Source of the DNA: an uncultured Thermoplasmatales archaeon
Lineage (GTDB): Archaea; Thermoplasmatota; Penumbrarchaeia; Penumbrarchaeales; Penumbrarchaeaceae
DNA: 64,000 bases
Direction of reading: 5' to 3'
Assembly (NCBI GenBank): GCA_964445525.1
Contig: CAYULA010000018.1
Coordinates: 36-64,035, forward strand
Shown here: positions 35,062 to 59,730 of the stretch, one piece after another
Layout of the letters: the number at the start of each line of letters is the position of its first letter
Numbering within the stretch: position 1 is the first letter of the stretch
The notes under the pieces: model-generated
What the model was told of the DNA's origin: nothing
The model's database searches: none
What the model saw: only the letters and a program-made list of their open reading frames with translations
Made by a program: the position numbers and the translations under genes

Positions 35062-35766
35062 TCAGGCTATTTGATACAACTCGAGTTTTGTTTTATATTC
35101 CTTCCAACTGGGAAGAACCAGGTCCAGTAATCGATAATACTCTTTCTGATGGTTCGGAACCTTCAAATGAACCAATTCGTGGAAAATGACGTATTCAATG
35201 CAGTAGGAAGGTGTCCTTATCAACTCGAGGTTGAGGTGTATTCTATTCTTTCCATGAACACAGCTGCCCCATCTCTTTTTCATTCTCTTGATTTTCATCT
35301 CCGGTCGTTTTATTCCGTGTTTGGTTACAACCTTCATCGCTTCATCCAGTATCTCATTGAACTTTATCCGGGCGTGATGTCTGTACCAATCATATAGAAG
35401 AAGTTCTACCATCTCGGGAGATCTATTTCTGGTATGAACCTCGATGAATCTCCCCTTCATTTTGACATTGATTGTTTCTGATTCGATGACCTTCAACCTG
35501 TACTGTCTTCCGAGGTAGCGGTGTGTTTCTCCACTGACATATCTTTTATTCAGATCCTCCTTCGGATACTGTCTAAAGTGAAGTCTTTTCTTCACAACCC
35601 ACCTGCCCCTCTTGTTGACGATTTCCAGTACCTTCTTGATATCGAGGTCCTCAGGTGCCCTGACTTCCACCGATCCATCCGGTTTGACCCTCGTTTCAAG
35701 GGTTTTTCTATTTGATCTCACAAGCTTGAAGGGGATCCTCTGATTTCCGTATCTTATCTCGTTCAT
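35062..35766 (-). CDS. DUF45 / YgjP-like (M48-related) zinc metallopeptidase
   Basis: HExxH in FHELVHLKVPNH, preceded by RWGSC. Its start overlaps the hsdR stop in an ATGA arrangement. Confidence 0.8.
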   Translation of the reverse strand: MNEIRYGNQRIPFKLVRSNRKTLETRVKPDGSVEVRAPEDLDIKKVLEIVNKRGRWVVKKRLHFRQYPKEDLNKRYVSGETHRYLGRQYRLKVIESETINVKMKGRFIEVHTRNRSPEMVELLLYDWYRHHARIKFNEILDEAMKVVTKHGIKRPEMKIKRMKKRWGSCVHGKNRIHLNLELIRTPSYCIEYVIFHELVHLKVPNHQKEYYRLLDLVLPSWKEYKTKLELYQIA

Positions 35767-38700
35767 GAAGCGTACCTTCTCCTTGCAATGTCCATTACCC
35801 TTTCCAGGATCAGATCGATATCGTCGAATTCGAGATGGAGGTTTTCTTTGTCCATCAAAAAATCCGATATTTCCCTCATCATCTTCTTCTGAACATCATC
35901 CCTCTTCTGCCAATCAACGATCCTGTTATCCCTGATTATCTGATCAATGGCCATTGCCAGATTGGCGGAGAGCTCTTTTGCGGGTTGCATTGTATTGTCT
36001 TTGTTCTTTGGGTCGGAGAGAACGCTGAAAGTAACTCCATAGAATGCTTTAGCGATGTCATTTCCTTCCAGGATCTCCGGTTCGTCTTCGTCCTTTCTGT
36101 TGATCACATGATCCCTGATCCTCATGGCTCTTCTGAAGTATTCGTTTTCATCGATCCTCTGCTGGCGATAGCTGTCAATTGCTTCCTTAATCAGATCGGA
36201 GAATTTCTTGTAAAAGGCCGGATCCTCTTCCCATTTATCCTGAATGGATTTGAGTGTTCTATGGGCTATTGTGTCTGCCTGGGATGCTTTACCTCTTAAT
36301 TTTGCGATCTCCTTTTCGAATTTCTCCTTGTCGAAGATGTCCACTTCCTTGGTGATTATCTCCACCTTGTCAGAGGTCACGTAGGTGTCCAGAAGTTTCT
36401 TGATCTTCGGTTCGTACTCGCTGATATCAATAACTTCGGCATATCTCTTCTTGACTGAGGCTCTGAGTTTCTGGAAGAAATGAAGGTCATCCTTGTATCT
36501 TTGAATTGTTTCGGGTTTTTGGTCCTCGAAGAATTTGGGAGTGGATAGTGCAACGGAAAGCGTTCTGGAAAACAATGAGAGTCTTTCGTAGAATGCATCC
36601 CGTATCTCTTTGTCCCCGAGAAATACCTCGTACTCCTCCTCGTCTTTTTTATTTTTTATTTCCTTGAATATGTCCCACACATCCGAATGTCTCTGAGGGA
36701 GTTTCCTGATTTCTTCCAAAATATTTGTAAGAGTGCCTTCGAGGTCTTCCTGTTCGAATTCTTCCAGCGCAGAGTAGGTTGTAAGTGCCTTGTCAAGTTC
36801 TCCCAGAATACCTGAGTAATCGATTATGTAACCGTGGTCCTTTCCTTCCTTGATCCTGTTGACCCTTGCTATAGCCTGGAGTAGAGTGTGCTCCTTCATC
36901 TGCTTGGCCAGGTATAGGATTGTATTGTTGGGGGAATCAAAACCGGTTAGCAGTTTGTCAACCACGATCAGGATCTCCGGTTCCTCCCCGTACTTGAAAT
37001 CGTTGACTATCGTGTCGTTGTAATCATCCTCGTTTCTGAATCTCTCCATCATTTTGGACCAGAACCTCTGGACCCTGTCCTCCACTTCATCCAATGGGTC
37101 TTCATGACCTTCCCTGGTGTCCGGTGATGAGATCACAACCTCGGAGATCACATCCCCGAAATCATCCAGATATTCCTTGTATTTCAATGCGGCAAGCTTT
37201 GAAGGGGTTGCTACCTGAGCTTTGAATTGTGTTCCCTTCCAGTTCCTTCTGTAATGTTCGCTTATGTCGAACGCAATCATGTGTATCTTCTGATCGGAAG
37301 AGTTCAATTGGGATATTCTGGAATATTTCTTTTTGAGATCGGTTTTCTGTTCATCGGTGAGGCCTTTGGTAACTATATCGAACCAGCTGTCAAGGGAATC
37401 CATGTCAACCTTTTGGGGAACATGTCTTCCCTCGTAAAGTAATGGAACAACCGCTTTGTCCTTTACAGCCTGGTCAATGGTGTATTCGTCGATGAACCCG
37501 CCAAATCTCTGGGCTGTGGACTTTTCACTCTTCATCAATGGAGTTCCCGTGAATCCGATGTAGCAAGCATTGGGAAGGATCTGCCTCATCCTCGCATGGG
37601 ATTCGCCGTACTGGGATCTGTGACTCTCATCCACGAGAACGAAGATGTTGGGATCCTCGATGGGAGATTTTTGTGATTTCTTCAGTGCCGAGACGAATTT
37701 GTCGATGACGGATGTGATCACAGTGGTTTTATTCTGTTTTAACTGCCTGTAAAGATCTTCCCCGGTCCTTGCTTTGTGAGGTTCCATTCCGCAGTTCTTG
37801 AAGGTGCCTTTTATCTGCTTGTCGAGATTGATCCTGTCTGTAACGATCACGATCCTGGCATTGGGTATGTCCCTGTCCATGGCGAGGACCTTTGCAAGCC
37901 AGACCATGGTAAGTGATTTTCCGGATCCCTGCGTGTGCCAGATGACCCCTCCCTTTCTCTTCTTTGAATCCTCAAATGTCTTTAATCTCCTCATGGTTTT
38001 TTTCACTGCGAAATACTGCTGGTATCTGGCGATCTTCTTTATTCCTCCGTCGAATATGATGAACTTCCTTGTCAGTTCCAGCAATCGATCTTTTCTGAGT
38101 AGGGAATGGATGGTCCTGTCCTGTTCCGTTATCTTTCTCCCTTCCGTTTCAAAGCTGTCAAAATAATCCCAGACGTAGCGAAACCTGTCGCTGAAAAGTT
38201 TATTTTTTATTGCCTGTGACAGGGGGGTGTTAATCAGATGTTCTAGCTCTTCTTCGAAATCTTCCTTTTCCTTCCATACCGACCAGAACTTCGCGGGAGT
38301 GGTTGCTGTTGCATATTTTGCTTCATTTTTGGATATTCCCAACAATATCTGTGAGTAGATAAAGAGCCTCTGGATCTCGTTCTTTTTCTGATTTCTTATG
38401 TGCTGTGAGACCGCTTCATCGATGGAATCCTTTTCATCGGGCCTCTTGCATTCGATGACCACCAGAGGTATTCCGTTTACGAAGAGCACGATATCCGGCC
38501 TTCTGTGGCCCTTTCCGTCATCTTTTTCGACCTCGAATTCCTCGGTGACGTGGAAATAATTGTTTTCAATATTATCCCAGTCGATGTAGTTCATGGTGAA
38601 ACTTCGAATGTATCCCTTTATATTCTCCTCGAAGCTCTTTCCGAGACACATCAGATCGTAGAGGTCCTGATTGGTCCTCCCCACGTTATCTATCATCACA

Positions 38701-38945
38701 TCGTCCAGGGCCTTTACCGCGTTTGTGATATTCCTGTTGGAGAAGGCATATTCGTCTTCAAGATATTCGAATCTGTTCTCCCTGAGCTTTTTTTCGAGTA
38801 TTGACGTGAGAACGACCTTCCCTTTCTTGTTTTCGCGAAGGTCAAGGGCCTCCTCCGGTGTGAGATATTCATACCCCATTTTGATGAGTAATTGTAATGC
38901 AGGTATCTGCGAGATATGATCCTCGATAAATGATGGGATGTCCAT
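35763..38945 (-). CDS. hsdR: Type I restriction enzyme, R subunit
   Basis: N-terminal PD-(D/E)xK (RPDIVLFVNGIPLVVIECK) and helicase motif I (HTQGSGKSLTM). Motif II (VLVDESHRSQ) and later SF2 motifs follow. The start is ATG 38945, with GAGGAGG 7 nt upstream; the track start 38981 overlaps the upstream gene. Confidence 0.95.
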   Translation of the reverse strand: MDIPSFIEDHISQIPALQLLIKMGYEYLTPEEALDLRENKKGKVVLTSILEKKLRENRFEYLEDEYAFSNRNITNAVKALDDVMIDNVGRTNQDLYDLMCLGKSFEENIKGYIRSFTMNYIDWDNIENNYFHVTEEFEVEKDDGKGHRRPDIVLFVNGIPLVVIECKRPDEKDSIDEAVSQHIRNQKKNEIQRLFIYSQILLGISKNEAKYATATTPAKFWSVWKEKEDFEEELEHLINTPLSQAIKNKLFSDRFRYVWDYFDSFETEGRKITEQDRTIHSLLRKDRLLELTRKFIIFDGGIKKIARYQQYFAVKKTMRRLKTFEDSKKRKGGVIWHTQGSGKSLTMVWLAKVLAMDRDIPNARIVIVTDRINLDKQIKGTFKNCGMEPHKARTGEDLYRQLKQNKTTVITSVIDKFVSALKKSQKSPIEDPNIFVLVDESHRSQYGESHARMRQILPNACYIGFTGTPLMKSEKSTAQRFGGFIDEYTIDQAVKDKAVVPLLYEGRHVPQKVDMDSLDSWFDIVTKGLTDEQKTDLKKKYSRISQLNSSDQKIHMIAFDISEHYRRNWKGTQFKAQVATPSKLAALKYKEYLDDFGDVISEVVISSPDTREGHEDPLDEVEDRVQRFWSKMMERFRNEDDYNDTIVNDFKYGEEPEILIVVDKLLTGFDSPNNTILYLAKQMKEHTLLQAIARVNRIKEGKDHGYIIDYSGILGELDKALTTYSALEEFEQEDLEGTLTNILEEIRKLPQRHSDVWDIFKEIKNKKDEEEYEVFLGDKEIRDAFYERLSLFSRTLSVALSTPKFFEDQKPETIQRYKDDLHFFQKLRASVKKRYAEVIDISEYEPKIKKLLDTYVTSDKVEIITKEVDIFDKEKFEKEIAKLRGKASQADTIAHRTLKSIQDKWEEDPAFYKKFSDLIKEAIDSYRQQRIDENEYFRRAMRIRDHVINRKDEDEPEILEGNDIAKAFYGVTFSVLSDPKNKDNTMQPAKELSANLAMAIDQIIRDNRIVDWQKRDDVQKKMMREISDFLMDKENLHLEFDDIDLILERVMDIARRRYAS

Positions 38946-38947
38946 TT

Positions 38948-39793
38948 TCAATCCTCCTCTTCTTCTTTGATTATTTTCCAATGACCTCCTCTTGGAGGGC
39001 CTATACGTTTTATGAATCCTTTTTGTTTAAGTTCAGAAATAACTTTTTGTGTGTTTCTGTGATTTATTCCGATTTTCTTGGACATCTTCCTTGTTGTAAT
39101 TTTATTGTTTTTCTCAACCAGTTCCAAGATTTTTAGTTGTGTCGAATTAAGGACCATTACGTTCTGATCTACGTCCTTTTCTATGTCCCAATTAATGGAA
39201 TTGTCCATCAGTTTATTTATCTGAACAGGATTCAATTGCCAGTATCCGCTTCTATCGGAACCAACTCGCAGAAGGCATTTATTTTTTTTCAGAAATGAAA
39301 GATATTTCTGGATATTTCGTTGATTAATTCCAATTATTTTTGATAATTCCCTTGAAGTGATCTCGCGGTTTCCACCGATCAATTCCAGGATGGAAATATG
39401 AGTATTATTCAATTTCTTTACGTCTTTTTCTATGTCCTGATCTACGTCTTTTTCTACTACCTTTTCATGTTCACCCATGGGACGTAGAAAAGTGGTGTAG
39501 AACGCCCTCCCGATCTCTTTGAATTCTGAATCAGGTTCAAGTTTCAATATTTTCATTATTCCTCTTCCCCAGTTCTCCACGAAATGAATATCCTTGAACT
39601 TCTGTGCAAGGAGAGGATTCCTTCTGTCCGATACGTTTCCTTTTCTTATCTCCTCTACAGTCATTCTATCCTTCGACAGAATGGGATCAGACGTGATTGG
39701 GTCTATCACATATCTCATTTGGGAAGTTGAACGCTTTAACTCCGTTGTTTCCGTTTCCGTTACGTAGAATCCATTGATCATTTCAATTTTCAT
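38948..39793 (-). CDS. AlbA_2-family C-terminal fragment-like protein with two tandem wHTH modules
   Basis: RRNPLLAQKF...ENWGRGIMKIL resembles the HATPase_c_4 tail of AlbA_2/RecG-like regulators. It is followed by an internally duplicated approximately 65-aa wHTH (LN(N/S)T.(I/L).ILEL...ITxRxxSKxIGIN.RN.QK). The N-terminal AlbA_2 domain is missing. Confidence 0.65.
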   Translation of the reverse strand: MKIEMINGFYVTETETTELKRSTSQMRYVIDPITSDPILSKDRMTVEEIRKGNVSDRRNPLLAQKFKDIHFVENWGRGIMKILKLEPDSEFKEIGRAFYTTFLRPMGEHEKVVEKDVDQDIEKDVKKLNNTHISILELIGGNREITSRELSKIIGINQRNIQKYLSFLKKNKCLLRVGSDRSGYWQLNPVQINKLMDNSINWDIEKDVDQNVMVLNSTQLKILELVEKNNKITTRKMSKKIGINHRNTQKVISELKQKGFIKRIGPPRGGHWKIIKEEEED

Positions 39794-39802
39794 CTCCTCA
39801 TT

Positions 39803-41131
39803 TCATGTATCATCAACCTTAACCCTCGTCTTCCCCGTCAGAAGTTGTTGCATAAGTCCTTTCTTTATTTCCGATAGGACCTTCTTTCTTTCATACAAAT
39901 TTTCGATCACACCATCAAGATCGAACAATGTTTTTGCAATCATTTTTTGTTCATTAATTTCAGGCATTGGTACCTGTATTCTCTTTAAACCACTTGGGTA
40001 AATATGAACTACAGAATGTCCTTGCCCCTTCTTTCGACTTTGTGAATAGAATATTTGGCTATTTAGAAGAAATGAGAGGAATTGAGAATCAGATTCCTTG
40101 TTTCTTAAAATAACGATATCTCCACCCGCAAAGGCATCTTCATTTCCTAGGTAGGCTATGGATTTGCCTATTTCATCAAGTGTTTCACCTGAACCTGCAA
40201 ATAAGACATCACCTGTTTTAATAGGTTCAGATTCATAAGTTGATTGTTCACTGATGTATGTTTTAAAACTATGAGTATAGAACCGATCAGTTGTATATAT
40301 TTGGCCATACGTGATACATGGAAAGCCTTCTGACCTCAGTTCACTCTTTGAAACTCCTTTTCCCCTATAGAATTGACCAAGTTCATCAAGAGTCACCACA
40401 TCCCAATCCAGAGGGACCTCTCCGATCTTTGTATCCTTGAATCCCTCTTTCTCGATGAATTCCTTGAACCGGACCTTCCCCGTGAGAAGCTGCTGCATCA
40501 ATCCTTTCTTGAGGTTCTCCTTCTCCTTGATAAGGGCCTCCGTCTTTTCAATAGCAAGGTCCCACGTTGAGAGGACCTCTGCGATCTTTTTTTGTTCAGG
40601 GAGTGGTGGAATAGGTATTAATAATGACTGGATTCTTGATAAGGCCAACTTTGGTTGGGCATTATTAGTTCCTGATTTTTTGATTAAGTATTGAATAGAA
40701 TTTGACATCATAATATATTTCAAAAAAACTTTATTAATTATGATATTTGTTAATTTATTTGCGTTTTCCGTTAGATTGGCACCATCTAGGTCAAGGGGAA
40801 TTTCTCCAACAATTCCTAATGTTCCAGCAACTGAAATAAACAAATCATCTTTTGATATTGTGTATCTTCGTATTGATGGAAAAACCTCCTCTGGGACATA
40901 ATGAATATCATCTGTTTTTACTCCTCCCATGTGCATGTCAACAACTCTGATATATGGATGTGAAGTCTTAATATCTGTAACAAATGTCCCTTTTGGTAAT
41001 CGTTTTCCACCTTTTACTTGGCAGATATCTTCAATTCTTTTTACATCCCAAGCCTTAGGAATCATACCAATTTTTGTCTCTTTATAATCATTACTTTCTA
41101 TCGACTTCATAATTCGCTTCACCTTCTTCAA
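39803..41131 (-). CDS. hsdS: Type I R-M specificity subunit (two target-recognition domains)
   Basis: Two variable TRDs are separated by conserved helices LPEQKKIAEVLS...LKKGLMQQLLTGKVRF and EQKMIAKTL...IKKGLMQQLLTGKTRV. Confidence 0.9.
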   Translation of the reverse strand: MKKVKRIMKSIESNDYKETKIGMIPKAWDVKRIEDICQVKGGKRLPKGTFVTDIKTSHPYIRVVDMHMGGVKTDDIHYVPEEVFPSIRRYTISKDDLFISVAGTLGIVGEIPLDLDGANLTENANKLTNIIINKVFLKYIMMSNSIQYLIKKSGTNNAQPKLALSRIQSLLIPIPPLPEQKKIAEVLSTWDLAIEKTEALIKEKENLKKGLMQQLLTGKVRFKEFIEKEGFKDTKIGEVPLDWDVVTLDELGQFYRGKGVSKSELRSEGFPCITYGQIYTTDRFYTHSFKTYISEQSTYESEPIKTGDVLFAGSGETLDEIGKSIAYLGNEDAFAGGDIVILRNKESDSQFLSFLLNSQIFYSQSRKKGQGHSVVHIYPSGLKRIQVPMPEINEQKMIAKTLFDLDGVIENLYERKKVLSEIKKGLMQQLLTGKTRVKVDDT

Positions 41132-41603
41132 TTCCTCTTCTAGCGATTATAAACGCCCATTTAGGAGGTTGGGGGCTTTTCTTGTTCAGTTCATCTCGTT
41201 TGTTATTAAGGTCCATAAGTTGTTGATATGGCTCATTTTTTGGTTTTTTCCGATCAATTCCAATCTCACGGAATATTCTAGCTCTATTTCTTAGTGAGTT
41301 GTATTTATTACCAGCTTCCAGATGAGAGCTAGCTCTTCCATTTGGATTAAGGAAAGTAGCGACGGCTGTTAGAGCTGTTACAATAATTGCTAGTATTCCT
41401 GCAATCAAAGTATGATTTGAAAAATCGGAAAGAGCCGATGCACCAGAAATAGCTGCTAAGATGGCTGTTGGAACTCCGATCCAAATGTGAAATCTTCTCC
41501 AAAAGGAAGCTGTGACAAAATGGCCTTTTGCAGAATAGAGGCTATCTTCCTCAATTCTCTTCGCTTCCTTCTGAATTCTATTCTTATCCATATTATCAGA
41601 CAT
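41091..41603 (-). CDS. SLATT-domain 2-TM protein (predicted membrane effector)
   Basis: The N-terminal helix with YSAKGHF is followed by two TM helices (HIWIGVPTAILAAISGASAL, LIAGILAIIVTALTAVATFL). A helical tail (AGNKYNSLRNRARIF) follows. It starts 3 nt after the SMODS stop. Confidence 0.7.
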   Translation of the reverse strand: MSDNMDKNRIQKEAKRIEEDSLYSAKGHFVTASFWRRFHIWIGVPTAILAAISGASALSDFSNHTLIAGILAIIVTALTAVATFLNPNGRASSHLEAGNKYNSLRNRARIFREIGIDRKKPKNEPYQQLMDLNNKRDELNKKSPQPPKWAFIIARRGIEEGEANYEVDRK

Positions 41604-41606
41604 CCG

Positions 41607-42476
41607 TTAATAAGCTGGGAATTTTTCAGCAAAGACCATATTCCACCAATAAAATGCATCTTGGATTTTACCTGCCTGCTCAGCATTTCTTGCCTTATCG
41701 GCTCGGATTAAAGCAGTTTCGATTTTAGATAGAGCATCTTCTCTTTTCGCCTCAGTGTTGCATGGATGAATATATCCAGAGATCCCGACTGGATCATGTA
41801 ATGATGCAAGACCACAATCTCGAAGAATCTTCAATATCTTCCTCACATCATATGAATATTGTATTCGGTCTTCTCCATAGGCATACTTTGCAATCTTCAT
41901 CTCAAGATATATTGATGATATGGGAACATTTCGTAGAAATTTCCAAGCCTTCGCGAAACGGATCAATGGTTTTACCTTTTTACTCAGTGCTTTATTTACT
42001 TCTGTAACATATGCATTCTGAGCATCTGGGGAGGTTCTCATCCATCCGTCAAAACTATTAGGAATTTCATAGATCTTGTATCCCCCAATTGTTTTATTTA
42101 TGTCATCAGCAGGTACGACCTCAGTGCTTTCACAACCATTTGTGCCGAAAGGAACAAGTACCGCAGGTTTTCGAACTGTCACCCCAGTATAAGGAAATCT
42201 TACATCTAGTGTATTTCGGATTTTCCTCAAAGTTGATGCAGAGTTTTGATTGAGGTTCTCAGTTGGGATCACAGCAAAATAATCTACATCGCTGTATCCG
42301 TGTATACTTGTACCATTCCCAAATGAACCGGTTTTAAAGAAACGAGTCATTCCATAGTTATTCATCAAACATTGTTTAATGGTCAATCGATGCCTCTCTG
42401 CTGCCTCGGATTCTCCACATGTGGGTATTAATCTTTGATGAAAGATTCGAAAACCTTCTTCAACGGTCTTAGCCAT
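41607..42476 (-). CDS. SMODS-type (pol-beta fold) nucleotidyltransferase
   Basis: FKTGSFGNGTSIHGYSDVDYFAVIP provides the GS-x9-13-DxD catalytic motif. A third acidic strand STEVVPADD follows. The N-terminal helix pattern F..F...L.PT..E is typical of SMODS. Confidence 0.7.
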   Translation of the reverse strand: MAKTVEEGFRIFHQRLIPTCGESEAAERHRLTIKQCLMNNYGMTRFFKTGSFGNGTSIHGYSDVDYFAVIPTENLNQNSASTLRKIRNTLDVRFPYTGVTVRKPAVLVPFGTNGCESTEVVPADDINKTIGGYKIYEIPNSFDGWMRTSPDAQNAYVTEVNKALSKKVKPLIRFAKAWKFLRNVPISSIYLEMKIAKYAYGEDRIQYSYDVRKILKILRDCGLASLHDPVGISGYIHPCNTEAKREDALSKIETALIRADKARNAEQAGKIQDAFYWWNMVFAEKFPAY

Positions 42477-44024: not shown

Positions 44025-44141
44025 TCATTTCTCCTCCCAGATAATATTTTGACTTGGTCCCCGTTTCCGGAACTCGTATCGTTTATCTCCGGAGAGGACC
44101 TTTTCAACGTATTTTGGTTTCATGGAGAGGAGGACGTTCAT
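44025..44141 (-). pseudogene. ASCH gene 5' fragment (38 codons), duplicate of 42763-42876
   Basis: It translates to MNVLLSMKPKYVEKVLSGDKRYEFRKRGPSQNIIWEEK. About 80 nt align with the intact ASCH 5' end with about 10 mismatches. Confidence 0.6.
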
Positions 44142-44347
44142 GTGAGTACCTCCTTCAAACTATGTGTGGCAATTTCTGAAAGATTCTTGAAAGGGATAAT
44201 CGCCAAGTAATCACCAACTAATCGCCAACAGGACCTAATCTGCCATTTATTCAGCCCAAGATCGAATAGGAGAACGTTCATTGGAGGTCCTTCATTTCCC
44301 TTATGGTTTTGATCCGGTTTTCCGTTCACTTTTTCTCCTCCTTTCAC
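44138..44347 (-). pseudogene. doubtful ORF containing a third, shorter copy of the ASCH start junction
   Basis: An internal GPPMNVLL is encoded at 44266-44300, a region that resembles the RBS + ATG junction of the ASCH gene. The rest has no recognisable family. Confidence 0.3.
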
Positions 44348-44359
44348 AAGATAATTCGA

Positions 44360-44797
44360 TCATTCCGATCCGCATAATATGCAGAAATATGTCCCTTTAA
44401 AAACAGAATATGGGTCCCTCGCTCTATCAATCACTCTTCCACAAACCGAGCACTTCTCCAATTCGAATTTCGGTGGGTCCTTCAGCTTTGTATGATTGTA
44501 TTCATTGGTTCCAAGATATGCATACATCTCGGCGTCCAGTTCCTCCCTGCATTTCTTGCATGTTTCCCATTCTCCCTCATGCTTGTGTATATAATGGTAT
44601 GAACATAATGTGTAGTGATCATGGTTCCGATAGCATGAATTACGGGCATATGAAAACATAACATATTCATCCTCATCATCGCAGATAGGCATATCACAGC
44701 ATGGGGTTCGGGTCAGGTTCTTTGTTTTCCCACAGATGAAACAGCGTTCTTTTTCCGGTTCTTTCTTTTGGTCCTTCATCTTTCTTCTGTGTGACAT
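44360..44797 (-). CDS. Cys/His-rich putative zinc-binding protein, unknown family
   Basis: CFICGK...PCCDMPIC...CYRNHDHYTLCSYHYIHKH...CKKCREE...CSVCGR...CILCG. The start is ATG 44797, 4 nt after the upstream stop; the track start 44893 overlaps by 92 nt. Confidence 0.55.
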   Translation of the reverse strand: MSHRRKMKDQKKEPEKERCFICGKTKNLTRTPCCDMPICDDEDEYVMFSYARNSCYRNHDHYTLCSYHYIHKHEGEWETCKKCREELDAEMYAYLGTNEYNHTKLKDPPKFELEKCSVCGRVIDRARDPYSVFKGTYFCILCGSE

Positions 44798-44801
44798 TTT
44801 C

Positions 44802-45191
44802 TCACTCCGTATCATCAAATGAGATGAAGTCGACAGGTTCATCGAAGGTCTTCTCTGTTGCTTCTTTGATCTTACTTCGGGTCCTTCTGTCAAAGCTCAA
44901 AATCCTCTTTTTCAACTCATCAGCAAGTCTGTTAACCTCATCGTCATCCTCCAGATCCATCTCAACATCATCCTCGGAATAGACTGTAATCATGTTGTAA
45001 TACGGATCACTGTATATCGTGATGTTACCAAGCGGGAAGGTAATCGCCTTGATGTAATCATCACCGACTTCCCCTCGACCTGTCAATATCATGCTTATTT
45101 CAAGAAATCCATGAACCCTGGAAGACGGCAATCCGTGTGATTCATCCTCGACTTTCCGTATCATGCTTTTCAATCCTTTCATGATAATCAC
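44802..45191 (-). CDS. hypothetical acidic protein (129 aa)
   Basis: ORF in the coupled array. No family recognised. Confidence 0.5.
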   Translation of the reverse strand: MIIMKGLKSMIRKVEDESHGLPSSRVHGFLEISMILTGRGEVGDDYIKAITFPLGNITIYSDPYYNMITVYSEDDVEMDLEDDDEVNRLADELKKRILSFDRRTRSKIKEATEKTFDEPVDFISFDDTE

Positions 45192-45200
45192 CCCGTTTCA

Positions 45201-46100
45201 TCATCTCTTCAACTGGAACATGAAAACATGTTCACTTCTTTTCTCCGGTACTATGCCATTTAAATTATCGGTCAATTCCTTCTTTGTCTTTCCGCATCCG
45301 ACAATGATGCCATCAAGTACTCCGAACCAGCCATTTTCAATACCAGCTTCCTTCAGTATCTTCTTGAGGTCCCTGGAATGGACCTTCCCCATCTTCTGAT
45401 GATAGTAGACCTTCAACCGTTCATCCTTGTTTTTCAGTTCCTCTATCTCCTCCCAGTACACATCACGATTGTACTGGCTCTTCAGATATACCTTCAACAA
45501 CTCCAGATCATCCGTTTTCCCTTCTCTTCCATCGTAGGGCAACGAGGTGACAATTCCATGCCTGGCTTCTGCTTTCTGAAATGAAGCGTTGAAACTTTTC
45601 TTGATCCCCGCCCCGAACCTGATGTTGTAAGGATTGATCACTCCATCATAGACGATCTTTCCCTTGAACGGAAGCAAGGTTGTTTCCATTGGCACAGGAA
45701 GATAAGGACCGAGCATATCCTCGAATGTGTTGTTCAATGTGAGTACTCCGTATGGTATCCCATCATCCTCATTCTGAGACAGAACAACAGCATATTTTTT
45801 CAGATATTTTACAATGAGAAACCTTCCTCTGATGTAATGCTTGAAGTTGCTCACGATCTCCAGTTCCTCATCATTAAATCCAATTGGATTATCTGCTACA
45901 TATTGATCGATGATGTCTGGGTCATCATAAATTGCCATTCTCATATCAAGAAGATACTCCACGGGGAAATGGAATATGTCATCCGGTTCGAGTTCTTTTT
46001 TCAAGTTTCCTTTTTTCAGATTTGCATATATCAGAAGAGAGTGAAACAACCTTAAGAATTGATCCTTGTCCTTTTTTGATAATTTCATTTTTTCAACCAT
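45201..46100 (-). CDS. hypothetical protein (299 aa)
   Basis: A long ORF in an AT-rich context, overlapping its upstream neighbour by 16 nt. No family recognised. Confidence 0.6.
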   Translation of the reverse strand: MVEKMKLSKKDKDQFLRLFHSLLIYANLKKGNLKKELEPDDIFHFPVEYLLDMRMAIYDDPDIIDQYVADNPIGFNDEELEIVSNFKHYIRGRFLIVKYLKKYAVVLSQNEDDGIPYGVLTLNNTFEDMLGPYLPVPMETTLLPFKGKIVYDGVINPYNIRFGAGIKKSFNASFQKAEARHGIVTSLPYDGREGKTDDLELLKVYLKSQYNRDVYWEEIEELKNKDERLKVYYHQKMGKVHSRDLKKILKEAGIENGWFGVLDGIIVGCGKTKKELTDNLNGIVPEKRSEHVFMFQLKR

Positions 46101-46621
46101 CCTTCAAAATTAGCATCAACATATTCATCGACCATTTCAGGGTCCTCGCTCAATTCCTTCCATTCATCAACCACAGTTTCGAAGGTTTCCTTCGGAGCAT
46201 CCGGGACATAATCTTTGTAGCTTGATGTTGATTCGTTCTCAAATTTATTAAGACCTTTCAGGATTCCCATAAAATATCTGTCTCTTTCACGGGGAAGCTT
46301 CAACTTATTGAGTTTTCTTGCTTCCTTCAAGAAGGGTTCCACCTCTTCTTCGAACAATTCCCAGGCAAGATCGTTTGGATCGACGTAACCGTTTCTCGTT
46401 CCTCCGGAATGGTCCCAGATGTACTCGACCTTGATCATATCCAGCACGCAGAACAAATTGTCACCAATGTCATCCTCATGTATATCTGTAATGAATTCTA
46501 GGGCAATCTCTTCGACCTGTTCCACCAATTCATTATTCCTTTCCATCAATGTCATCAAAATTCCGATTGAATGTCTGTTGATCAGGTCACCGAGGATTTC
46601 GGGAGGCATTCCATTTTTCAT
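46085..46621 (-). CDS. hypothetical acidic protein (178 aa)
   Basis: ORF in the coupled array with a 4-nt overlap at its start. No family recognised. Confidence 0.55.
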   Translation of the reverse strand: MKNGMPPEILGDLINRHSIGILMTLMERNNELVEQVEEIALEFITDIHEDDIGDNLFCVLDMIKVEYIWDHSGGTRNGYVDPNDLAWELFEEEVEPFLKEARKLNKLKLPRERDRYFMGILKGLNKFENESTSSYKDYVPDAPKETFETVVDEWKELSEDPEMVDEYVDANFEGWLKK

Positions 46622-46899
46622 GCTGACGCAGCTCCTTCTAATTTGAAGTGATCACATAAGATGACCATATTGCGGAGATTCGCAATATGGTTGTACTGAA
46701 TCTGGACCATTTTGTCCGATTGGACAATATTGTGTGAAGGGGTTAGAACCATTTCGTTGATGTCAACAAAATGGTTTTGAGGTGGATTGTTGACCAATTC
46801 GTGTGGATACACGATATGGTTCTGGTGTTTGTGTGTAATCATATATCGGAAATGCTCGCAATGGTCTGAAATTGAACGAGTAAAGTCAATATCACTCAT
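46618..46899 (-). CDS. hypothetical 93-aa protein with 14-15-aa internal repeats (NH(I/F)V...(M/L)V), coincident with DNA palindromes
   Basis: The frame is open across an AT-rich region and overlaps both neighbours (8 nt and 4 nt). Its coding status is uncertain because the repeats are dyad-symmetric at the DNA level. Confidence 0.4.
   Translation of the reverse strand: MSDIDFTRSISDHCEHFRYMITHKHQNHIVYPHELVNNPPQNHFVDINEMVLTPSHNIVQSDKMVQIQYNHIANLRNMVILCDHFKLEGAASA
46664..46820. repeat. four phased imperfect palindromes with conserved ACCA(T/A)(A/T)T ... A(T/A)(A/T)TGGT ends
   Basis: H1 46664-46691: ACCATATTGCG-gagatt-CGCAATATGGT, 11/11 pairs. H2 46706-46733: 10/12 pairs. H3 46747-46776: AACCATTTCGTTGA-tg-TCAACAAAATGGTT, 13/14 pairs. 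H4 46793-46820: ACCAATTCGTGT-ggat-ACACGATATGGT, 10/12 pairs. The centres are 42, 42 and 45 bp apart. Confidence 0.75.
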
Positions 46900-48259
46900 C
46901 CTCTATCACCTCCCAATTTCCTTTCTTTGTTGAACCCGACCTTCTAATTTTACCCCTTCTTTTTAAATTTCTGATATGGTAATACACACCATAATAGGAA
47001 AGGTCAAGCACCTTTGATATCTCATTGATAGAGATGTCTGGATTATTTATCATCAAAGCCATAATTTTCTCAGGAATATCTCTTGTAGTTTCTTTTGTAG
47101 TTTCTTTTGTAGTTTCTTTTGTAGTAGCCTCAATTTCTGTTATCTTTCTGAAAACCACATCAAAATTATTTCCATTCTCGAAAAGGTCCAATTCAATCTC
47201 CGGATAATCTATCAATTCCCTTCGGATACGGACCATGCCACTTCCGTATTTCTCGATCTCTTTTACCAAATAAAAGCATTCTGCGATGAGAACATTTCTC
47301 AATGAAGATGAATAATTATCTCTTTTCAGATCATCAAGTGTGATGTCACCATACAATTTTCCAGGGCTGGATATCAGGATGTGATCATCGAATACCTTGA
47401 TGATGATATCGGAAGGATTCCGATAATCTCTATGAACTATTGCATTGATGACAGCTTCCCTTAAAGCTTCCAGGGGATACTCCCAGATCTCTTTCCTCTC
47501 CGGTTCTCCTGTAAATTCAAACCGTATACTGATCTGCTTTTTGATGGCCCACATCACCTCATCGACCGCTTCAAGAAGAGGCAGATGGATCATGATGTCA
47601 TCAATTATGACCGTCGGGGTTTTAAATCTTCCAATATGTATTCCATGAACTGGCCTGCTCTTTGAAAAAAGAAGCTCAGCTGCCACTGTGGGCCTATCAT
47701 CTTTTACCAGTTCGATCTTTTCAAGGGATCCAATTGGAGTCCCATCAAAATGGAACCTGCCGACCTTATTTACTTTATCAATGAACTTCTCTATTTTGTC
47801 AAGATCAAGTTGTTCAAATGTACGACAATAGTGAGATGGAGAGGAATCCCAGGAGTATTGGATTGCCATCATGTAAAGTTCTGTTACCTCATCTATCTCC
47901 TTCTGATGGTCGCTGTTATGCTTTCTAGTATAGTATCTACCTTTGAAAGAAATCGGCTTGAAGGAAGATTCCTTCACATCTATTATTACTACACGTTTTC
48001 CGTTTGCTTCAGAGATTGCCATGTCTGGAATTATTGAAGGATTTGTTTTCGTCTTGATCTCATTGGTCCAACTCTGCAATGATTCTGGACCAACATCAAT
48101 ACCCAATATTCTACCTTTGTTATTCACCCCCAAAATCACTTTCCCACCCTTTGAATTGGAAAAAGCGGAAAGAGTCCTGATAGTTTCAGCTCCGAATGAG
48201 GATTTGAATTCGACCTCCCCGTTTTCAAGGTTTTCTAGCAACTTATCCAGTTCATTCAT
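46892..48259 (-). CDS. AlbA_2 (Schlafen-like) + HATPase_c_4 + C-terminal wHTH protein (RecG-like putative regulator)
   Basis: The N-terminal ENGEVEFKSSF...LSAFSNSKGGKVILGVNNKGRILGI is an AlbA_2 motif. The central region has REAVINAIVHRDY and EKYGSGMVRI, followed by a C-terminal wHTH. Confidence 0.8.
   Translation of the reverse strand: MNELDKLLENLENGEVEFKSSFGAETIRTLSAFSNSKGGKVILGVNNKGRILGIDVGPESLQSWTNEIKTKTNPSIIPDMAISEANGKRVVIIDVKESSFKPISFKGRYYTRKHNSDHQKEIDEVTELYMMAIQYSWDSSPSHYCRTFEQLDLDKIEKFIDKVNKVGRFHFDGTPIGSLEKIELVKDDRPTVAAELLFSKSRPVHGIHIGRFKTPTVIIDDIMIHLPLLEAVDEVMWAIKKQISIRFEFTGEPERKEIWEYPLEALREAVINAIVHRDYRNPSDIIIKVFDDHILISSPGKLYGDITLDDLKRDNYSSSLRNVLIAECFYLVKEIEKYGSGMVRIRRELIDYPEIELDLFENGNNFDVVFRKITEIEATTKETTKETTKETTRDIPEKIMALMINNPDISINEISKVLDLSYYGVYYHIRNLKRRGKIRRSGSTKKGNWEVIEDE
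47085..47125. repeat. 12-bp tandem repeat GTAGTTTCTTTT x3.4 inside the AlbA_2 gene (encodes (TKET)n linker)
   Basis: Read directly at 47085-47125. The repeat is in frame and lies between the HATPase_c_4 region and the wHTH. Confidence 0.85.
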
Positions 48260-48274
48260 TTACTCAAATCCCAC

Positions 48275-49783
48275 CTATTCATACAATCCCAGCTCCTTCA
48301 GGTATCCTACCATCTTCTCCCGGACCTCTGCAAGCTCTCCCTCGAGTTCCTCTATCCTTCTCTGGGTCGCAGGGATGTCGATCTCTTCCTCTTCCTCGAA
48401 AGTATCCACGTATCTTGGTATATTGAGATTGAAGTCATTCTCCCTGATCTCATCGAAGGTTGCCCTGTAGGAGTATTTGTCAATGGTCTTGTAATCCTTG
48501 TAGGTGTTGTGTATCTTATCGATATCCTCGTCTCTCAGCTTGTTCTGCTTTTTCCCCTTCTGGAATTCCCTGGAAGCATCTATGAAAAGGACATCGGTTG
48601 TATCCCTTCCCTTTTTATAAACCAGGATCGCAGCAGGGATTCCCGTTCCAAAGAACAACTGTGATGGAAGCCCTATCACAGCATCGAGGAGGTTCTCCTC
48701 GATAAGTTTCTTCCTGATTTTCCCCTCGCTGGATCCTCTGAAGAGGACCCCATGAGGAACGACAACCCCCACTCTTCCATCATTTTCATTCATTGTCTCG
48801 ATCATATGAGTTATGAATGCATAGTCTCCCTTGCTTTTTGGAGGAACTCCCCTGTGGAACCTCCTGAACCGGTCGTCTTTTGCATCTTCGGCGCCCCATT
48901 TATCCAACGAAAAAGGAGGATTGGCAACCACAATGTTGAATTTCATCAGTGTGTCGCCCTCGAGCAATTTGGGGTTGTTGATGGTATCTCCCCATTCGAT
49001 CTGGGCATTGTTGACACCATGCAGGAACATATTCATCTTGCAAAGTGCCCATGTTGAACCATTGAGTTCCTGACCGTAAAGGGCAAAATCCTCCGAACCC
49101 ACCTCCCTTGCCACCTTGATCAACAGAGAACCGGATCCGACGGTGGGATCACAGATCCTGTCACCTTCTTCCGGGTCCACAAGTTTCGATATTAATATGG
49201 ACACTTCAGCCGGAGTGTAGAATTCTCCTCCCTTTTTTCCAGCGTCACTTGCGAAGTGGGAGATAAGATATTCATAGGTATTTCCGATTACATCGATGTT
49301 TCCGATACGTGACGGCCGCAGATCCAGCTTGGGATTTGAGAAATCTTCGATGAGATTCTTCAAGCGCCTGTTTCTATCCTTTGTCTGCCCGAGGGCGGTC
49401 TCCGAATTGAAGTCGATATTCCTGAAAACACCCTCCAATTTCGCTTTATTTGCCTCTTCTATCCTTGCCAGGGCTATGTTTATTTTCTCTCCTATATCAT
49501 TGTCATTTCTGTGTTTGTAAATGTAATCATAGGAACAATCTTCAGGCAGGATGAAGTTCTCGAACCTCATCATGTATCTGATCCTTTTCTCATCCCTTCC
49601 GTATTTTTCCTCATATTCTGCCACTCTGTCCTTCCACAGATCGCTGATATATTTGAGGAAAAGAAAGACCAGTATGTAATTCTTGTATTCAGAAGGATCA
49701 ATGACACCTCTGAAGGTATCACAGGCTCTCCATGCGACATTGTTTATCTCGGTTTGATCAATATTATCCCCCACTCTAATCAC
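48275..49783 (-). CDS. hsdM: Type I R-M DNA methyltransferase subunit
   Basis: It has an HsdM N-domain, the SAM motif DPTVGSGSLL and the catalytic motif VVANPPFS. Confidence 0.95.
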   Translation of the reverse strand: MIRVGDNIDQTEINNVAWRACDTFRGVIDPSEYKNYILVFLFLKYISDLWKDRVAEYEEKYGRDEKRIRYMMRFENFILPEDCSYDYIYKHRNDNDIGEKINIALARIEEANKAKLEGVFRNIDFNSETALGQTKDRNRRLKNLIEDFSNPKLDLRPSRIGNIDVIGNTYEYLISHFASDAGKKGGEFYTPAEVSILISKLVDPEEGDRICDPTVGSGSLLIKVAREVGSEDFALYGQELNGSTWALCKMNMFLHGVNNAQIEWGDTINNPKLLEGDTLMKFNIVVANPPFSLDKWGAEDAKDDRFRRFHRGVPPKSKGDYAFITHMIETMNENDGRVGVVVPHGVLFRGSSEGKIRKKLIEENLLDAVIGLPSQLFFGTGIPAAILVYKKGRDTTDVLFIDASREFQKGKKQNKLRDEDIDKIHNTYKDYKTIDKYSYRATFDEIRENDFNLNIPRYVDTFEEEEEIDIPATQRRIEELEGELAEVREKMVGYLKELGLYE

Positions 49784-50372
49784 TCCCCTGAATGATATTC
49801 AATGATACCTTTTCAATGATTTTTTTCTTATGGTCGATTATATCTTCTGACAGCCTCTGTTCTTCTTTTATTAGCTTGTCCAGCATAATTATCCTCTCCT
49901 GGTTTTTCAATGATGGGACGGGGATCTCCATATTTTCAATTGTTGTTTTTTTCAAGAAAGGAACACTTGTTCCTCCCATTCTATTTTTCAGGTATCTCTG
50001 TATCTTCCTGGTTTTGAAGTACCAAAGAAGATAGTCAGGATCAATGATATTCTTATCAATGTTAATTATGAGAAATTGATCCGTTACGGCATATGATCCT
50101 TTTGGAAAATTCACTTTAAAAAATATGGGTCTTGATGATTTGGATTTTACGATGACGTCATCCGGCCCGATTATTGCAGATGTTTTGATGTCTGAAAACC
50201 TCACCCTGTGCAGTTTATGAAATTCAATATCCGAGGCCTGATCAACATCAGATGGTTGAATCAGGTTGACCTCTCCTCTCGGGAGATTCCTGATGCCATT
50301 CCTGAAAAGATGGCCCTGCCTTATGGTTGCAATATCAGCCATCTTTTTGTTGGAAGTAAATGAATACTTCAT
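49776..50372 (-). CDS. half-size Type I specificity subunit (single TRD)
   Basis: One variable domain followed by the conserved helix PSLKNQERIIMLDKLIKEEQRLSEDIIDHKKKIIE. Its stop overlaps the hsdM start by 8 nt. Confidence 0.7.
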   Translation of the reverse strand: MKYSFTSNKKMADIATIRQGHLFRNGIRNLPRGEVNLIQPSDVDQASDIEFHKLHRVRFSDIKTSAIIGPDDVIVKSKSSRPIFFKVNFPKGSYAVTDQFLIINIDKNIIDPDYLLWYFKTRKIQRYLKNRMGGTSVPFLKKTTIENMEIPVPSLKNQERIIMLDKLIKEEQRLSEDIIDHKKKIIEKVSLNIIQGSD

Positions 50373-52976: not shown

Positions 52977-53567
52977 TCATTCAAATATATGATGATCAAG
53001 CTTGAAATTCAGCAATGTGACCATACGAGCAAGCCTTCTTTTTCTGAATCTCCAGTCTGGCATCATCCGATCGAGACAACCATAGAACATATCACCGTGG
53101 TCAGGATGCACGAGGTGGCAAAGTTCATGATAGACAACATATTCTATGCATCTTTTTGAAAGTTTTATCAGGTCCAGATTCAAATATATTCGATTCACAT
53201 CGGAAAGAGATCCCCCAACCCTGAGTTTCATCGGTTTTATGAGCATCTCGGGCATCTCTATGCCCATTCTTTTGAATCTTGGAACTGCCTTTTTGAGGAT
53301 CTCATTAAACTCTTCCTTTGCATTCATGGCAAGGAGATGATTGAATATCCATCTATTGTGCGATGGGTCCTCCGGAAATCTCGATCTTAGAAAGATCTTT
53401 TCCTTTTCCACTTCAGCCTCGTCACGATCGGATTCCATGATCCTCAACCTGCGGGGTTTTCCCATGAAATACTGAATATCACCCTCTATGAATTTCCCCG
53501 GTTTCACCCAGGGGATCACCGGCATTGGGGGCGGAGGCGGTATGGTAAATGAGGACCCGTTTATCAT
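52977..53567 (-). CDS. DUF45 / YgjP-like zinc metallopeptidase (second copy)
   Basis: HExxH in YHELCHLVHPDH, with the same family layout as 35062..35766. Confidence 0.75.
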   Translation of the reverse strand: MINGSSFTIPPPPPMPVIPWVKPGKFIEGDIQYFMGKPRRLRIMESDRDEAEVEKEKIFLRSRFPEDPSHNRWIFNHLLAMNAKEEFNEILKKAVPRFKRMGIEMPEMLIKPMKLRVGGSLSDVNRIYLNLDLIKLSKRCIEYVVYHELCHLVHPDHGDMFYGCLDRMMPDWRFRKRRLARMVTLLNFKLDHHIFE

Positions 53568-58185: not shown

Positions 58186-59730
58186 CTATCCATTATGGAG
58201 CTCCCTGAGATCGCCCAAAATATCCACCGATTCCCCTCCGTGTCGCGTCATCCTGGTCCTGACCTCGACCAATATCGGCTCTGATAGACTTCCACCGACA
58301 ACAATGGCAACCGCAACCGGAAGTCTCTGCACCTCCTCCGACATCCTTGTGGTGAGGCCCTCGACAGACGCTATTACAGCCTTGTGATCATTGGGATTGG
58401 TTACCTTAAGTATCATCTGAGTTCCGCATTGGGAAAGAACATTCTTGTCAACCTTTGCGGGCCTCTGGGAGACAATTGTCAACCCCATCCCGAACTTCCT
58501 GCCTTCGGAAGCCACGGTCTTGAGTATCTTCGATGTTATCGCGGGACCTGATTGCGGACAGAAATTATGCGCCTCCTCGACAACAAGCATGAACGGAGGT
58601 ATCACGCCCTCCTTTCTAGCTTTGAAAAGCTGAATCAACAGGGATGCGGCACCCACCTGCTGCATGTCCAGGGAAGCATTCCTCAAACCTATAACGGAGA
58701 TCTTACCCTTGGAGACTATCTCCTGAAGCGGTGTAGGCGGATTCGAGAAAAACGGCATTCTGTAGAGATGCTCCAGCCCGTTGAGTATATTCCATTTTGC
58801 GGGATTTGGATCGGTCTGGACTGCCGCTATGATATCTGACAGTTCCAGATCGTCTCCGAGGATCTCTTTTGCCTTCTGGTAGCAATTATACAGTATGGAA
58901 GAACCCGCTCCCAGGTTCTTTACTCCCATGAGGTCCATCAGGTCCTCGGGCGACAGCGATCTTATATCAACTCCAAGCGGAGTCCCCTCAATTTCAGGGG
59001 ACTGGTTACCTCCGATATGGAATTCCCTCAGGGAATCACCCAATCCCTTTGGAGATATCCCGAACCTGTTCATCCTATCATAATCATCCCTGTCAAGGTT
59101 GGGGGATATCATTGACCTGTATTCTCCGTGGAGGTCCAGGATGATGACCGGTATTCCATGCCTGTTAAGTTCCTCCGACAGGACACCGCAGGCATATGAT
59201 TTCCCTGATCCGCTCTTGGCAATGATGGATACATGATTCTGCACAAGTTTCGAAGGATCCAGAACAACATCAACATCCGTATGCAGGAGCTTTCCCACAT
59301 AGGCTCCCTGATCCCGGTCAAGTCCCAGGCCAAGGACCGATCCGATGCTCTCTTTTTTAGGTGTGTATATGTTCGAGGAAGGAAGCACAGGTGTCAACGG
59401 CCGTCTCAACCTGCCGTCGCTGTCCCTCCTTCCGATAACCTTGACGGATGCTATCCTCCTGTATGTTATCTCTCCCATCTTTCCTGCAAGCTTCAGGACC
59501 GCTTCCTCCTGTCCCACATCGGACCGGAGCTCTATGTCATCCACCAGGCCCAGGACCCACCCTTCTGCCGGGTGATGGAATTCCACGTAATCCATCTCCC
59601 TTAGATCAGGATCGGTGACCATGCACTTGAAGGATCCCGAAGAAACGTTACCATAAACCGCCCCTATGGGGCCTCCCGGATGGCCTGGATCGGTTGGACC
59701 ATCCACCGTTTCCCTCCCTCTCTTGGACAA
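58186..59730 (-). CDS. HerA-like (DUF87/FtsK-HerA superfamily) ATPase
   Basis: It has an N-terminal HAS-barrel-like region, Walker A (IAKSGSGKSYACG) and Walker B (MLVVEEAHNF). No NurA partner is adjacent. Confidence 0.8.
   Translation of the reverse strand: MSKRGRETVDGPTDPGHPGGPIGAVYGNVSSGSFKCMVTDPDLREMDYVEFHHPAEGWVLGLVDDIELRSDVGQEEAVLKLAGKMGEITYRRIASVKVIGRRDSDGRLRRPLTPVLPSSNIYTPKKESIGSVLGLGLDRDQGAYVGKLLHTDVDVVLDPSKLVQNHVSIIAKSGSGKSYACGVLSEELNRHGIPVIILDLHGEYRSMISPNLDRDDYDRMNRFGISPKGLGDSLREFHIGGNQSPEIEGTPLGVDIRSLSPEDLMDLMGVKNLGAGSSILYNCYQKAKEILGDDLELSDIIAAVQTDPNPAKWNILNGLEHLYRMPFFSNPPTPLQEIVSKGKISVIGLRNASLDMQQVGAASLLIQLFKARKEGVIPPFMLVVEEAHNFCPQSGPAITSKILKTVASEGRKFGMGLTIVSQRPAKVDKNVLSQCGTQMILKVTNPNDHKAVIASVEGLTTRMSEEVQRLPVAVAIVVGGSLSEPILVEVRTRMTRHGGESVDILGDLRELHNG

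Follow-up and report, generated by a model that had tools for sequence, protein, structure and literature searches.

Genes embedded within type I restriction-modification (R-M) operons are a described phenomenon, known as "guilt by embedding" (Payne et al. 2024, bioRxiv 10.1101/2024.01.29.577857), and TgvAB in Vibrio cholerae VPI-2 is one such R-M-embedded system (PMC11411939). COG2865, ASCH and PIN-(GNAT)-EVE genes have likewise been described as neighbors of type I R-M (Bell et al. 2020, PMC7641849). Here, we analyze a stretch of 64,000 nucleotides (the window) from contig CAYULA010000018.1 of an uncultured Thermoplasmatales archaeon, in which five consecutive minus-strand open reading frames (ORFs), called A to E below, lie inside an operon of this kind. 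The initial annotation took the five for one functional module, a candidate undescribed defense cassette. Our analysis shows that the gene families are new and that ORF A is odd, and that the five-gene "cassette" is not conserved as a system. Judged by gene content across related loci, A–E are a mosaic of separately travelling genes and not a single five-gene system. The reading that we favor, whose chances we would put at about even, is a mosaic of R-M-embedded accessory genes, in which a COG2865-type AlbA_2 gene and B (usually with C and D) form the core, E is a separate insert, and the proteins have non-enzymatic binding or adaptor roles.

Like the embedded genes of the earlier studies (bioRxiv 10.1101/2024.01.29.577857; PMC11411939), A–E lie between hsd genes, share their orientation, and have defense or candidate-defense neighbors. 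TgvAB and the tested embedded candidates, however, carry recognizable nuclease, NTPase or RNase domains, whereas A–E have none of these and no PADLOC model. The window operon also resembles the neighborhoods of PMC7641849 in being the kind of operon that carries COG2865-type and ASCH-like genes, and a sister locus (L087) has PIN-EVE and ASCH genes where the window has DUF1016 and ASCH. A–E differ from those neighborhoods in that they are additional genes absent from that description, with no PUA, EVE, ASCH, PIN or GNAT domain.

All five genes are found together elsewhere only in L087, the sister locus of about 90% identity, in which a truncated AlbA gene is followed by A-B-C-D-E. Identity to the window is about 88–93% for A–E, except for A (71–81%), and the hsdM genes are 98% identical. 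In L001–L004 (hsdM 86%), the order is AlbA-A-B-C-D, the position of E is taken by an unrelated 52-aa ORF, and an ASCH-like gene comes directly next, with no DUF1016 gene. The 52-aa ORF of L001 was considered as a remnant of E and rejected, being an unrelated winged helix–turn–helix (wHTH) fragment. Other relatives hold subsets: L089 reads AlbA-A-(ASCH fragment)-B-C; L175 reads AlbA-B-C, without A; L174 reads B-B'-C-SEC-C-D, with B duplicated upstream of C; L176 has a HATPase_c_4/wHTH gene and a 93-aa ORF, then B-D, without C; and L180 has D next to hsdR. The remaining contigs with subsets, from distant relatives, are too short to show hsd genes. Conserved order, which the initial annotation proposed as a check, is borne out for A-B-C-D, and this order is kept only in close relatives of the locus (A–E in L087, A–D in L001–3). 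At synonymous sites, C has diverged to a similar extent in all three loci compared (dS 0.32–0.35), whereas hsdM is far closer between the window and L087, which also fits a mosaic history.

The distribution of the C and E families points the same way. C has 551 relatives among 185,579 GTDB species genomes, spread over many archaeal and bacterial phyla; a protein identical to C is not on record. Among the 80 best, diverse loci with C relatives, tblastn and profile hidden Markov models place B in two (L072, L043) and A, D and E in none. Almost all C relatives are solitary, among housekeeping genes; no neighbor family is conserved in the C loci (the top cluster reaches 13 of 79 loci, and the commonest Pfam family in the flanks 10 of 119), and the flanks include HAD hydrolases, aminotransferases, ferredoxins and FBPase, with some relatives placed between FBPase and ferredoxin/AFOR genes. 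A few C relatives, annotated as hypothetical, are found on plasmids, namely haloarchaeal megaplasmids, beside UPF0175-PIN pairs, and one distant relative was found in viral contigs. The E family is strongly conserved and comprises more than 451 proteins at 50–64% identity across Acidobacteriota, Planctomycetota, Thermoplasmatota and other phyla. A metagenome search found 537 relatives, and none of the 80 loci kept for the neighborhood analysis has any of A–D or a conserved neighbor; the flanks are heterogeneous, with 124 Pfam families in 132 ORFs and the commonest family in 4 of the 132. The few E matches on plasmids are annotated as hypothetical. By this distribution, E is an independently acquired single gene of a widespread zinc-finger-like family. 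Two of the five pieces thus live mostly outside defense contexts, and adjacency alone overstates the case for a defense cassette.

The idea that A–E form one undescribed antiviral system whose five genes act together must be weighed against these comparisons. It draws on the short overlaps or gaps and single orientation of the genes, on their embedding between hsdM and hsdS among CBASS (cyclic oligonucleotide-based antiphage signaling system), PDC-S02 and PDC-M11B genes, and on L087, where A–E are intact at the identities given above despite other downstream cargo (PIN-EVE, ASCH, TIR). The sole other five-gene instance is, however, near-identical; E is absent from L001–4, A from L175 and C from L176, the great majority of C and E family members stand alone, outside defense contexts, and no effector-type domain was found. 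We consider a single five-gene system quite improbable. The opposite idea, that these genes have nothing to do with immunity and are mere passengers of a recombination-prone R-M slot, encoding small proteins that regulate or that bind nucleic acid, finds room in the metabolic flanks of the C relatives (between FBPase and ferredoxin/AFOR genes, or beside HAD hydrolases and aminotransferases), in the heterogeneity of the E flanks, and in the repeated recombination scars of the slot. Against it, a C sub-clade at 52% identity or more, together with the B and D families, occurs repeatedly beside COG2865, hsdR, DUF1016, RadC and SEC-C genes, which are typical of variable or defense islands, and genes within the operon are under purifying selection. 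This too we hold to be unlikely.

The ORFs themselves are well supported. The ORF list bears out all five minus-strand ORFs and the four junctions given by the initial annotation (Table 1). A–E are genuine genes and more than chance ORFs, because B, C, D and E have homologs, the ratio of nonsynonymous to synonymous substitution rates (dN/dS) of B–D is 0.11–0.47, and the frame of A is open in four diverged loci. The individual ratios (C, 0.17; D, 0.11–0.20; B, 0.27–0.47) indicate purifying selection on B–D. From homolog alignments, the likely true starts of C and D are Met5 and Met4, the former giving an ATGA overlap with the stop of B, and the start of E at the ATG at 44797 is supported. B and D are acidic as annotated (isoelectric points 4.39 and 4.56), and E is indeed Cys/His-rich, with 13 Cys and 7 His, though its pairs are four CxxC, one CxxH and one CC rather than at least five of CxxC type. 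The initial annotation could place none of the five in a family, and profile libraries agree: A–E have no significant match in Pfam, NCBIfam, PADLOC or PHROGs, and B, C and E have none in the PDB by sequence or profile at an E-value below 0.05. Library scans of all five proteins and fold searches of C and E revealed no catalytic or membrane effector signature; Foldseek gave no match at an E-value of 0.001 or below for C against PDB and BFVD or for E against PDB, so that no effector or enzymatic domain can be assigned from families or folds. Any link of A–E to defense comes from their embedding and position only.

The most constant association is that of an AlbA-like gene with B, usually with C and/or D. 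The initial annotation treated the AlbA_2 gene as a mere flank; it does adjoin A, and it is in addition the most consistent partner of B, lying upstream of B in six lineages. An AlbA homolog stands directly upstream of the A/B genes in L001–3, L087 (truncated), L089, L175 and L176, and the AlbA_2 gene probably belongs to the unit as more than a flank. Inside this gene, a 12-nt tandem repeat (3.9 copies, 47079–47125) translates into TTKE repeats within the linker ahead of the wHTH. The B family is small, with only five homolog clusters found, and its relatives adjoin AlbA-like genes and/or C or D in L087, L001–4, L089, L174, L175 and L176. Its alignment suggests a mostly helical protein, and searches of B gave no family (Pfam/NCBIfam/PADLOC), PDB, viral (IMG/VR) or plasmid (PLSDB) match.

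The D family is rare: a search of 1.84 billion proteins yielded 25 representative clusters. Its partners elsewhere change, in variable-island settings: D is preceded by SEC-C proteins in L174 and L180, and in L180 the order is a SEC-C/DUF1186 protein, D, a 337-aa protein, hsdR and YgjP. In L090 and L091, the order is DUF1016-RadC-D-PRiA4_ORF3-D'-PRiA4_ORF3, that is, two tandem D-family genes, each followed by PRiA4_ORF3, downstream of DUF1016 and RadC (L090 3745–6353, L091 3448–6056); a literature search returned nothing useful on PRiA4_ORF3 in defense. This suggests that D forms two-gene units with variable partners. An alternative is that two or more pairs of toxin-antitoxin-like or adaptor-effector type make up the cassette, with acidic B or D neutralizing or partnering downstream C, or E or other cargo. 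The arrangement of B before C and of D before E, with start/stop overlap or a 4-nt gap, is what such pairs would look like, as are the different partners that follow D (PRiA4_ORF3 twice in L090/91 and the 337-aa protein in L180) and the duplication of B upstream of C in L174. However, B is missing from 78 of the 80 C loci and D from all 80 E loci, which is hard to square with C or E being toxins in need of a cognate neutralizer, L176 has B then D without C, and no toxin-antitoxin family was matched in Pfam or PADLOC. We regard pairs of this sort as rather unlikely. A type II toxin-antitoxin pair in the strict sense was considered and rejected, given the lack of a toxin-antitoxin family match and the occurrence of C and E mostly without B or D.

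The acidity of B and D also bears on the suggestion of the initial annotation that the genes might be anti-restriction cargo. On such a view, B and D would modulate the type I enzyme by mimicking DNA, as factors of anti-restriction or restriction alleviation, and both are strongly acidic and sit inside a type I R-M operon. Anti-restriction genes usually reside on viruses and plasmids. We found no relatives of B or E in 2.9 M viral contigs (IMG/VR) and none of B or D in 72,556 plasmids (PLSDB), there is no similarity to ArdA/Ocr-type or other families in Pfam, PHROGs or PDB, and we see no rationale for a resident operon to carry its own inhibitor. The suggestion thus finds no support and appears very improbable. 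ArdA/Ocr-type DNA mimics, as a defined class, were set aside on the same grounds (no Pfam or PHROGs match, no relatives of B in viral contigs or plasmids or of D in plasmids).

For C, structure prediction gave a confident model. The AlphaFold model (mean predicted local distance difference test score, pLDDT, 90.3) has an N-terminal helical domain, a beta-barrel at residues ~90–151, a long helix, and a C-terminal helical plus alpha/beta domain. Its best PDB/BFVD fold matches are oligonucleotide/oligosaccharide-binding (OB) folds, namely the single-stranded DNA-binding protein (SSB) Rim1, the anticodon domains of Lys- and Asp-tRNA synthetases, and eIF5A, all at E-values of at least 0.04 (0.04–0.5 for the top Foldseek OB-fold matches). 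It is the barrel that best matches SSB/Rim1, the anticodon-binding domains of aminoacyl-tRNA synthetases and the C-domain of eIF5A, and we tentatively call it OB-like. C differs from these proteins in that all matches have those high E-values and query-normalized TM-scores of at most 0.2, with no sequence similarity, and in that the helical and C-terminal domains flanking the barrel are unmatched. Residues 1–188 of C are fused to DUF6398 in many other proteins; the "Rosetta stone" idea that B, D or E corresponds to this DUF6398 domain was rejected (hhalign probabilities of at most 1.1%), and we found no paper mentioning DUF6398. For E, a basic N-terminal tail precedes a Cys/His-rich, multi-zinc-finger-like body, with twelve Cys and three His invariant in the alignment. 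Its model is mediocre (pLDDT 72.7), with generic zinc-finger fold matches only (E-value of 1 or more).

ORF A was annotated as a repeat protein. The repeats exist, and they are DNA palindromes, that is, five hairpin units of about 31 nt (Table 1). The ends of the units are conserved (ACCAT...ATGGT), while the inner stems differ in sequence and yet are self-complementary. For a 13-bp helix across 19 units from four loci, 79.8% of the cells are paired; shuffles give 70.0%, with none of 500 attaining the observed value, and slid controls give 33–47%. Six pairs change on both sides, giving 31 covarying cells against 18 ± 3 expected, and the inner 5 bp pair with their own arm at 4.6 of 5 positions, against 2.1 of 5 with the arms of different-type units. 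The predicted RNA fold of ORF A lies below shuffles in both directions (z of −5.6 sense and −4.2 antisense), and G-U versus A-C counts show no preference for either strand (8 versus 14, uninformative). With a covariance model, units were detected in ORF A of the window, L087, L001/3 and L089 and otherwise just once, in L178, so that there are no dispersed copies elsewhere in the window and one extra in 1 Mb of related loci. The single unit in L178 (1256–1286) keeps the same frame (NH...MV); the 207-aa ORF around it is unrelated and lies downstream of a D homolog. The number of units varies (six in L087, five in L003, four in L089), and the unit has no Rfam match. A simple scan rates the last unit of the array as terminator-like, though only by a consensus match.

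There is also evidence that A is translated. The start of A overlaps the stop of AlbA and its stop overlaps the start of B (ATGA), a Shine–Dalgarno-like sequence precedes the start, the frame is open in all four loci with indels of whole units in frame, and dN/dS is 0.38–0.49, about 0.4 in distant comparisons. A is dispensable, as it is absent in L175. We read A as a fast-evolving small ORF whose hairpins are maintained, either by selection or by palindrome-correcting mutation. These features allow an alternative in which the AlbA_2/COG2865 gene with A, B, C and D is an undescribed R-M-embedded sensing or regulatory module, and the translated array of four to six covarying hairpins of about 30 nt (as RNA or single-stranded DNA) serves as a decoy, a sensor or an attenuator that either the Schlafen-like/wHTH protein or OB-like C would read; we see only a small chance of this. 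Type III toxin-antitoxin systems (ToxIN-like) have an RNA repeat array upstream of an endoribonuclease. A shares with them a foldable short repeat array directly upstream of a protein gene, in a defense context. It differs, however, in that the units vary in sequence and are simple hairpins inside a conserved ORF, and B, in place of the toxin, is acidic and has no ToxN/AbiQ-like match in PADLOC. A type III system for A-B was tried and rejected, as only the outer stems are shared between units, the ORF has a dN/dS of about 0.4, Rfam gives no match, and B has none in PADLOC.

In the mosaic that we favor, a COG2865-type AlbA_2/HATPase_c_4/wHTH gene is followed by B and usually by C and D, with A between AlbA and B in some lineages. 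E is a single gene inserted separately, and the cassettes of the slot appear to be exchanged by recombination, for example at the ASCH-like 5' end. The five proteins probably have binding, adaptor or regulatory roles rather than a killing function, because no enzymatic or membrane effector fold was seen in the library scans of A–E or in the folds of C and E. C may bind nucleic acid through its OB-like barrel, and acidic B and D, translationally coupled to downstream genes, could be the partner or inhibitor subunits. Control of the unit would fall to the wHTH protein, and the hairpins of ORF A might couple or attenuate translation and transcription into B–E. If the genes have any role in immunity, they would assist the R-M, CBASS and nuclease genes around them as accessory sensors or modulators. 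Several points weigh against this reading. Its mechanism is one that we infer, the unmatched folds could hide a new enzyme, and the OB-like assignment of C relies on Foldseek matches with E-values of 0.04 or more. Most contigs with B and D relatives are short, and wider linkage may be under-sampled. Finally, the tight coupling of A–E, kept at about 90% in L087 despite wholly different downstream cargo, would also fit a real A–E unit in this lineage. Even so, we weight the single five-gene system, the toxin-antitoxin-like pairs, the non-immune passengers and the anti-restriction mimics all below the mosaic.

How the mosaic may have formed is suggested by the gap after E. The tight coupling claimed by the initial annotation holds for A–E, while from E to DUF1016 there is a gap of 335 nt with recombination scars. 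These scars (Table 1) include a 5-codon start fragment of the ASCH-like gene (44268–44291) and direct repeats of about 95 nt of the ASCH-like 5' end that bracket DUF1016, 44156–44062 repeating 42889–42800. The gap also holds the region that in L001 stands upstream of the intact ASCH-like gene. Ahead of the ASCH-gene fragment there is an 11-nt tandem repeat (TAATCGCCAAC x3, plus strand, 44197–44229), which L001 has conserved upstream of its intact gene and which may be a promoter or operator element. Similar ASCH fragments occur at cassette junctions in L087 (12325–12400) and L089 (1118–1282), and the ASCH-like 5' end looks like a recombination hotspot for cassette exchange. The different cargo of the sister loci would then reflect cassettes swapped by recombination at the conserved start of the ASCH-like gene. 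In L087, the cargo after E is a PIN-EVE protein, ASCH, TIR and hsdS, which differs from that of the window, and hence the same R-M slot holds alternative defense cargo. The region L087 12424–15166, which takes the place of DUF1016/ASCH/CBASS, encodes a 503-aa protein that has an EVE domain and matches PIN below threshold, together with an ASCH protein and one with a TIR domain.

The surrounding operon bears out the defense neighborhood noted by the initial annotation. From 50372 to 35062 of the window, every gene in the ORF list is on the minus strand with short gaps or overlaps, and this single-orientation run of about 15 kb is a type I R-M super-operon. Its genes are, in order, half-size hsdS, hsdM, the AlbA_2/HATPase_c_4/wHTH gene, A, B, C, D, E and the DUF1016/YhcG nuclease, followed by a 135-aa ASCH-like protein, a SMODS cyclase, a SLATT two-transmembrane (2TM) protein, full hsdS, an HTH protein, hsdR and a YgjP-like peptidase. 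A–E are thus placed inside one defense system, between hsdM and hsdS and in the orientation of the hsd genes, and are probably co-transcribed. PADLOC identifies the cyclase and the 2TM protein as CBASS components (E-values 1.6e-112 and 1.7e-65), the DUF1016 gene as PDC-S02 and the 135-aa ASCH-like gene as PDC-M11B, all within the same R-M operon. An Rfam scan over 42–50.5 kb of the window gave no match, and a sigma-70 promoter scan, which is not applicable to archaea, stayed at chance level. A–E were also said to be the lowest-GC part of the island, which proved wrong: GC is 0.40–0.43 here and 0.36–0.38 at 39–42 kb.

Table 1. Positions in the window of A–E and of the operon features discussed in the text
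Feature	Position	Strand	Details
ORF A	46618-46899	minus	93 aa
Gene B	46085-46621	minus	178 aa
Gene C	45201-46100	minus	299 aa; likely start 46088
Gene D	44802-45191	minus	129 aa, GTG start; likely 126 aa from 45182
Gene E	44360-44797	minus	145 aa from ATG; 177 aa from upstream TTG
AlbA_2 (Schlafen-like) + HATPase_c_4 + wHTH gene, COG2865 type	46892..48259	minus	Pfam 5.3e-20, 6.8e-18, 7.4e-07
Five-unit hairpin array in ORF A	46662-46866	minus	~31 nt per unit, period 42-45 nt
Hairpin units	46836-46866, 46791-46821, 46746-46776, 46704-46734, 46662-46692	minus	
Recombination scars, E-DUF1016 gap	44062..44291	minus	5-codon and 27-codon copies of the ASCH-like gene 5' end, its upstream region, 11-nt tandem repeats
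Half-size hsdS	49776-50372	minus	overlaps hsdM start
hsdM	48275-49783	minus	type I R-M gene
Full-size hsdS	39803-41131	minus	type I R-M gene
hsdR	35763-38981	minus	type I R-M gene

Type I R-M operons now serve as bait for new immune genes, and this locus shows both the yield and the limit of such logic. The yield is four unannotated protein families (B, C, D and E), of which C and E are large and widespread, and naming and characterizing them would supply annotation for hundreds of genomes. The ORF built from hairpins and the exchange at the ASCH-like 5' end are, in addition, concrete and testable features of island regulation and reshuffling.

Some further observations concern the rest of the island and its surroundings. 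The cyclase and the 2TM effector make up a minimal CBASS-like pair (SMODS and SLATT, 41091–42476, minus strand) between the ASCH-like gene and hsdS. Specificity is encoded twice in the operon, with the full-size hsdS 7 kb downstream of the half-size one, and the two genes could provide alternative target specificities. The host is archaeal and related to methanogens: deoxyhypusine synthase and DUF359 genes lie near the island, and the closest relatives come from Methanosarcinales/Methanocellales-type metagenome-assembled genomes. Beyond the island are a second, truncated YgjP-like peptidase gene (52977–53567) and a HerA/DUF87 ATPase gene (58186–59730), which may be remnants of another system. 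Synteny of the HerA gene extends to L001 and L002, whereas L087 has in common with the window the genes for a large FG-GAP protein, AF_0692 and an acyltransferase.

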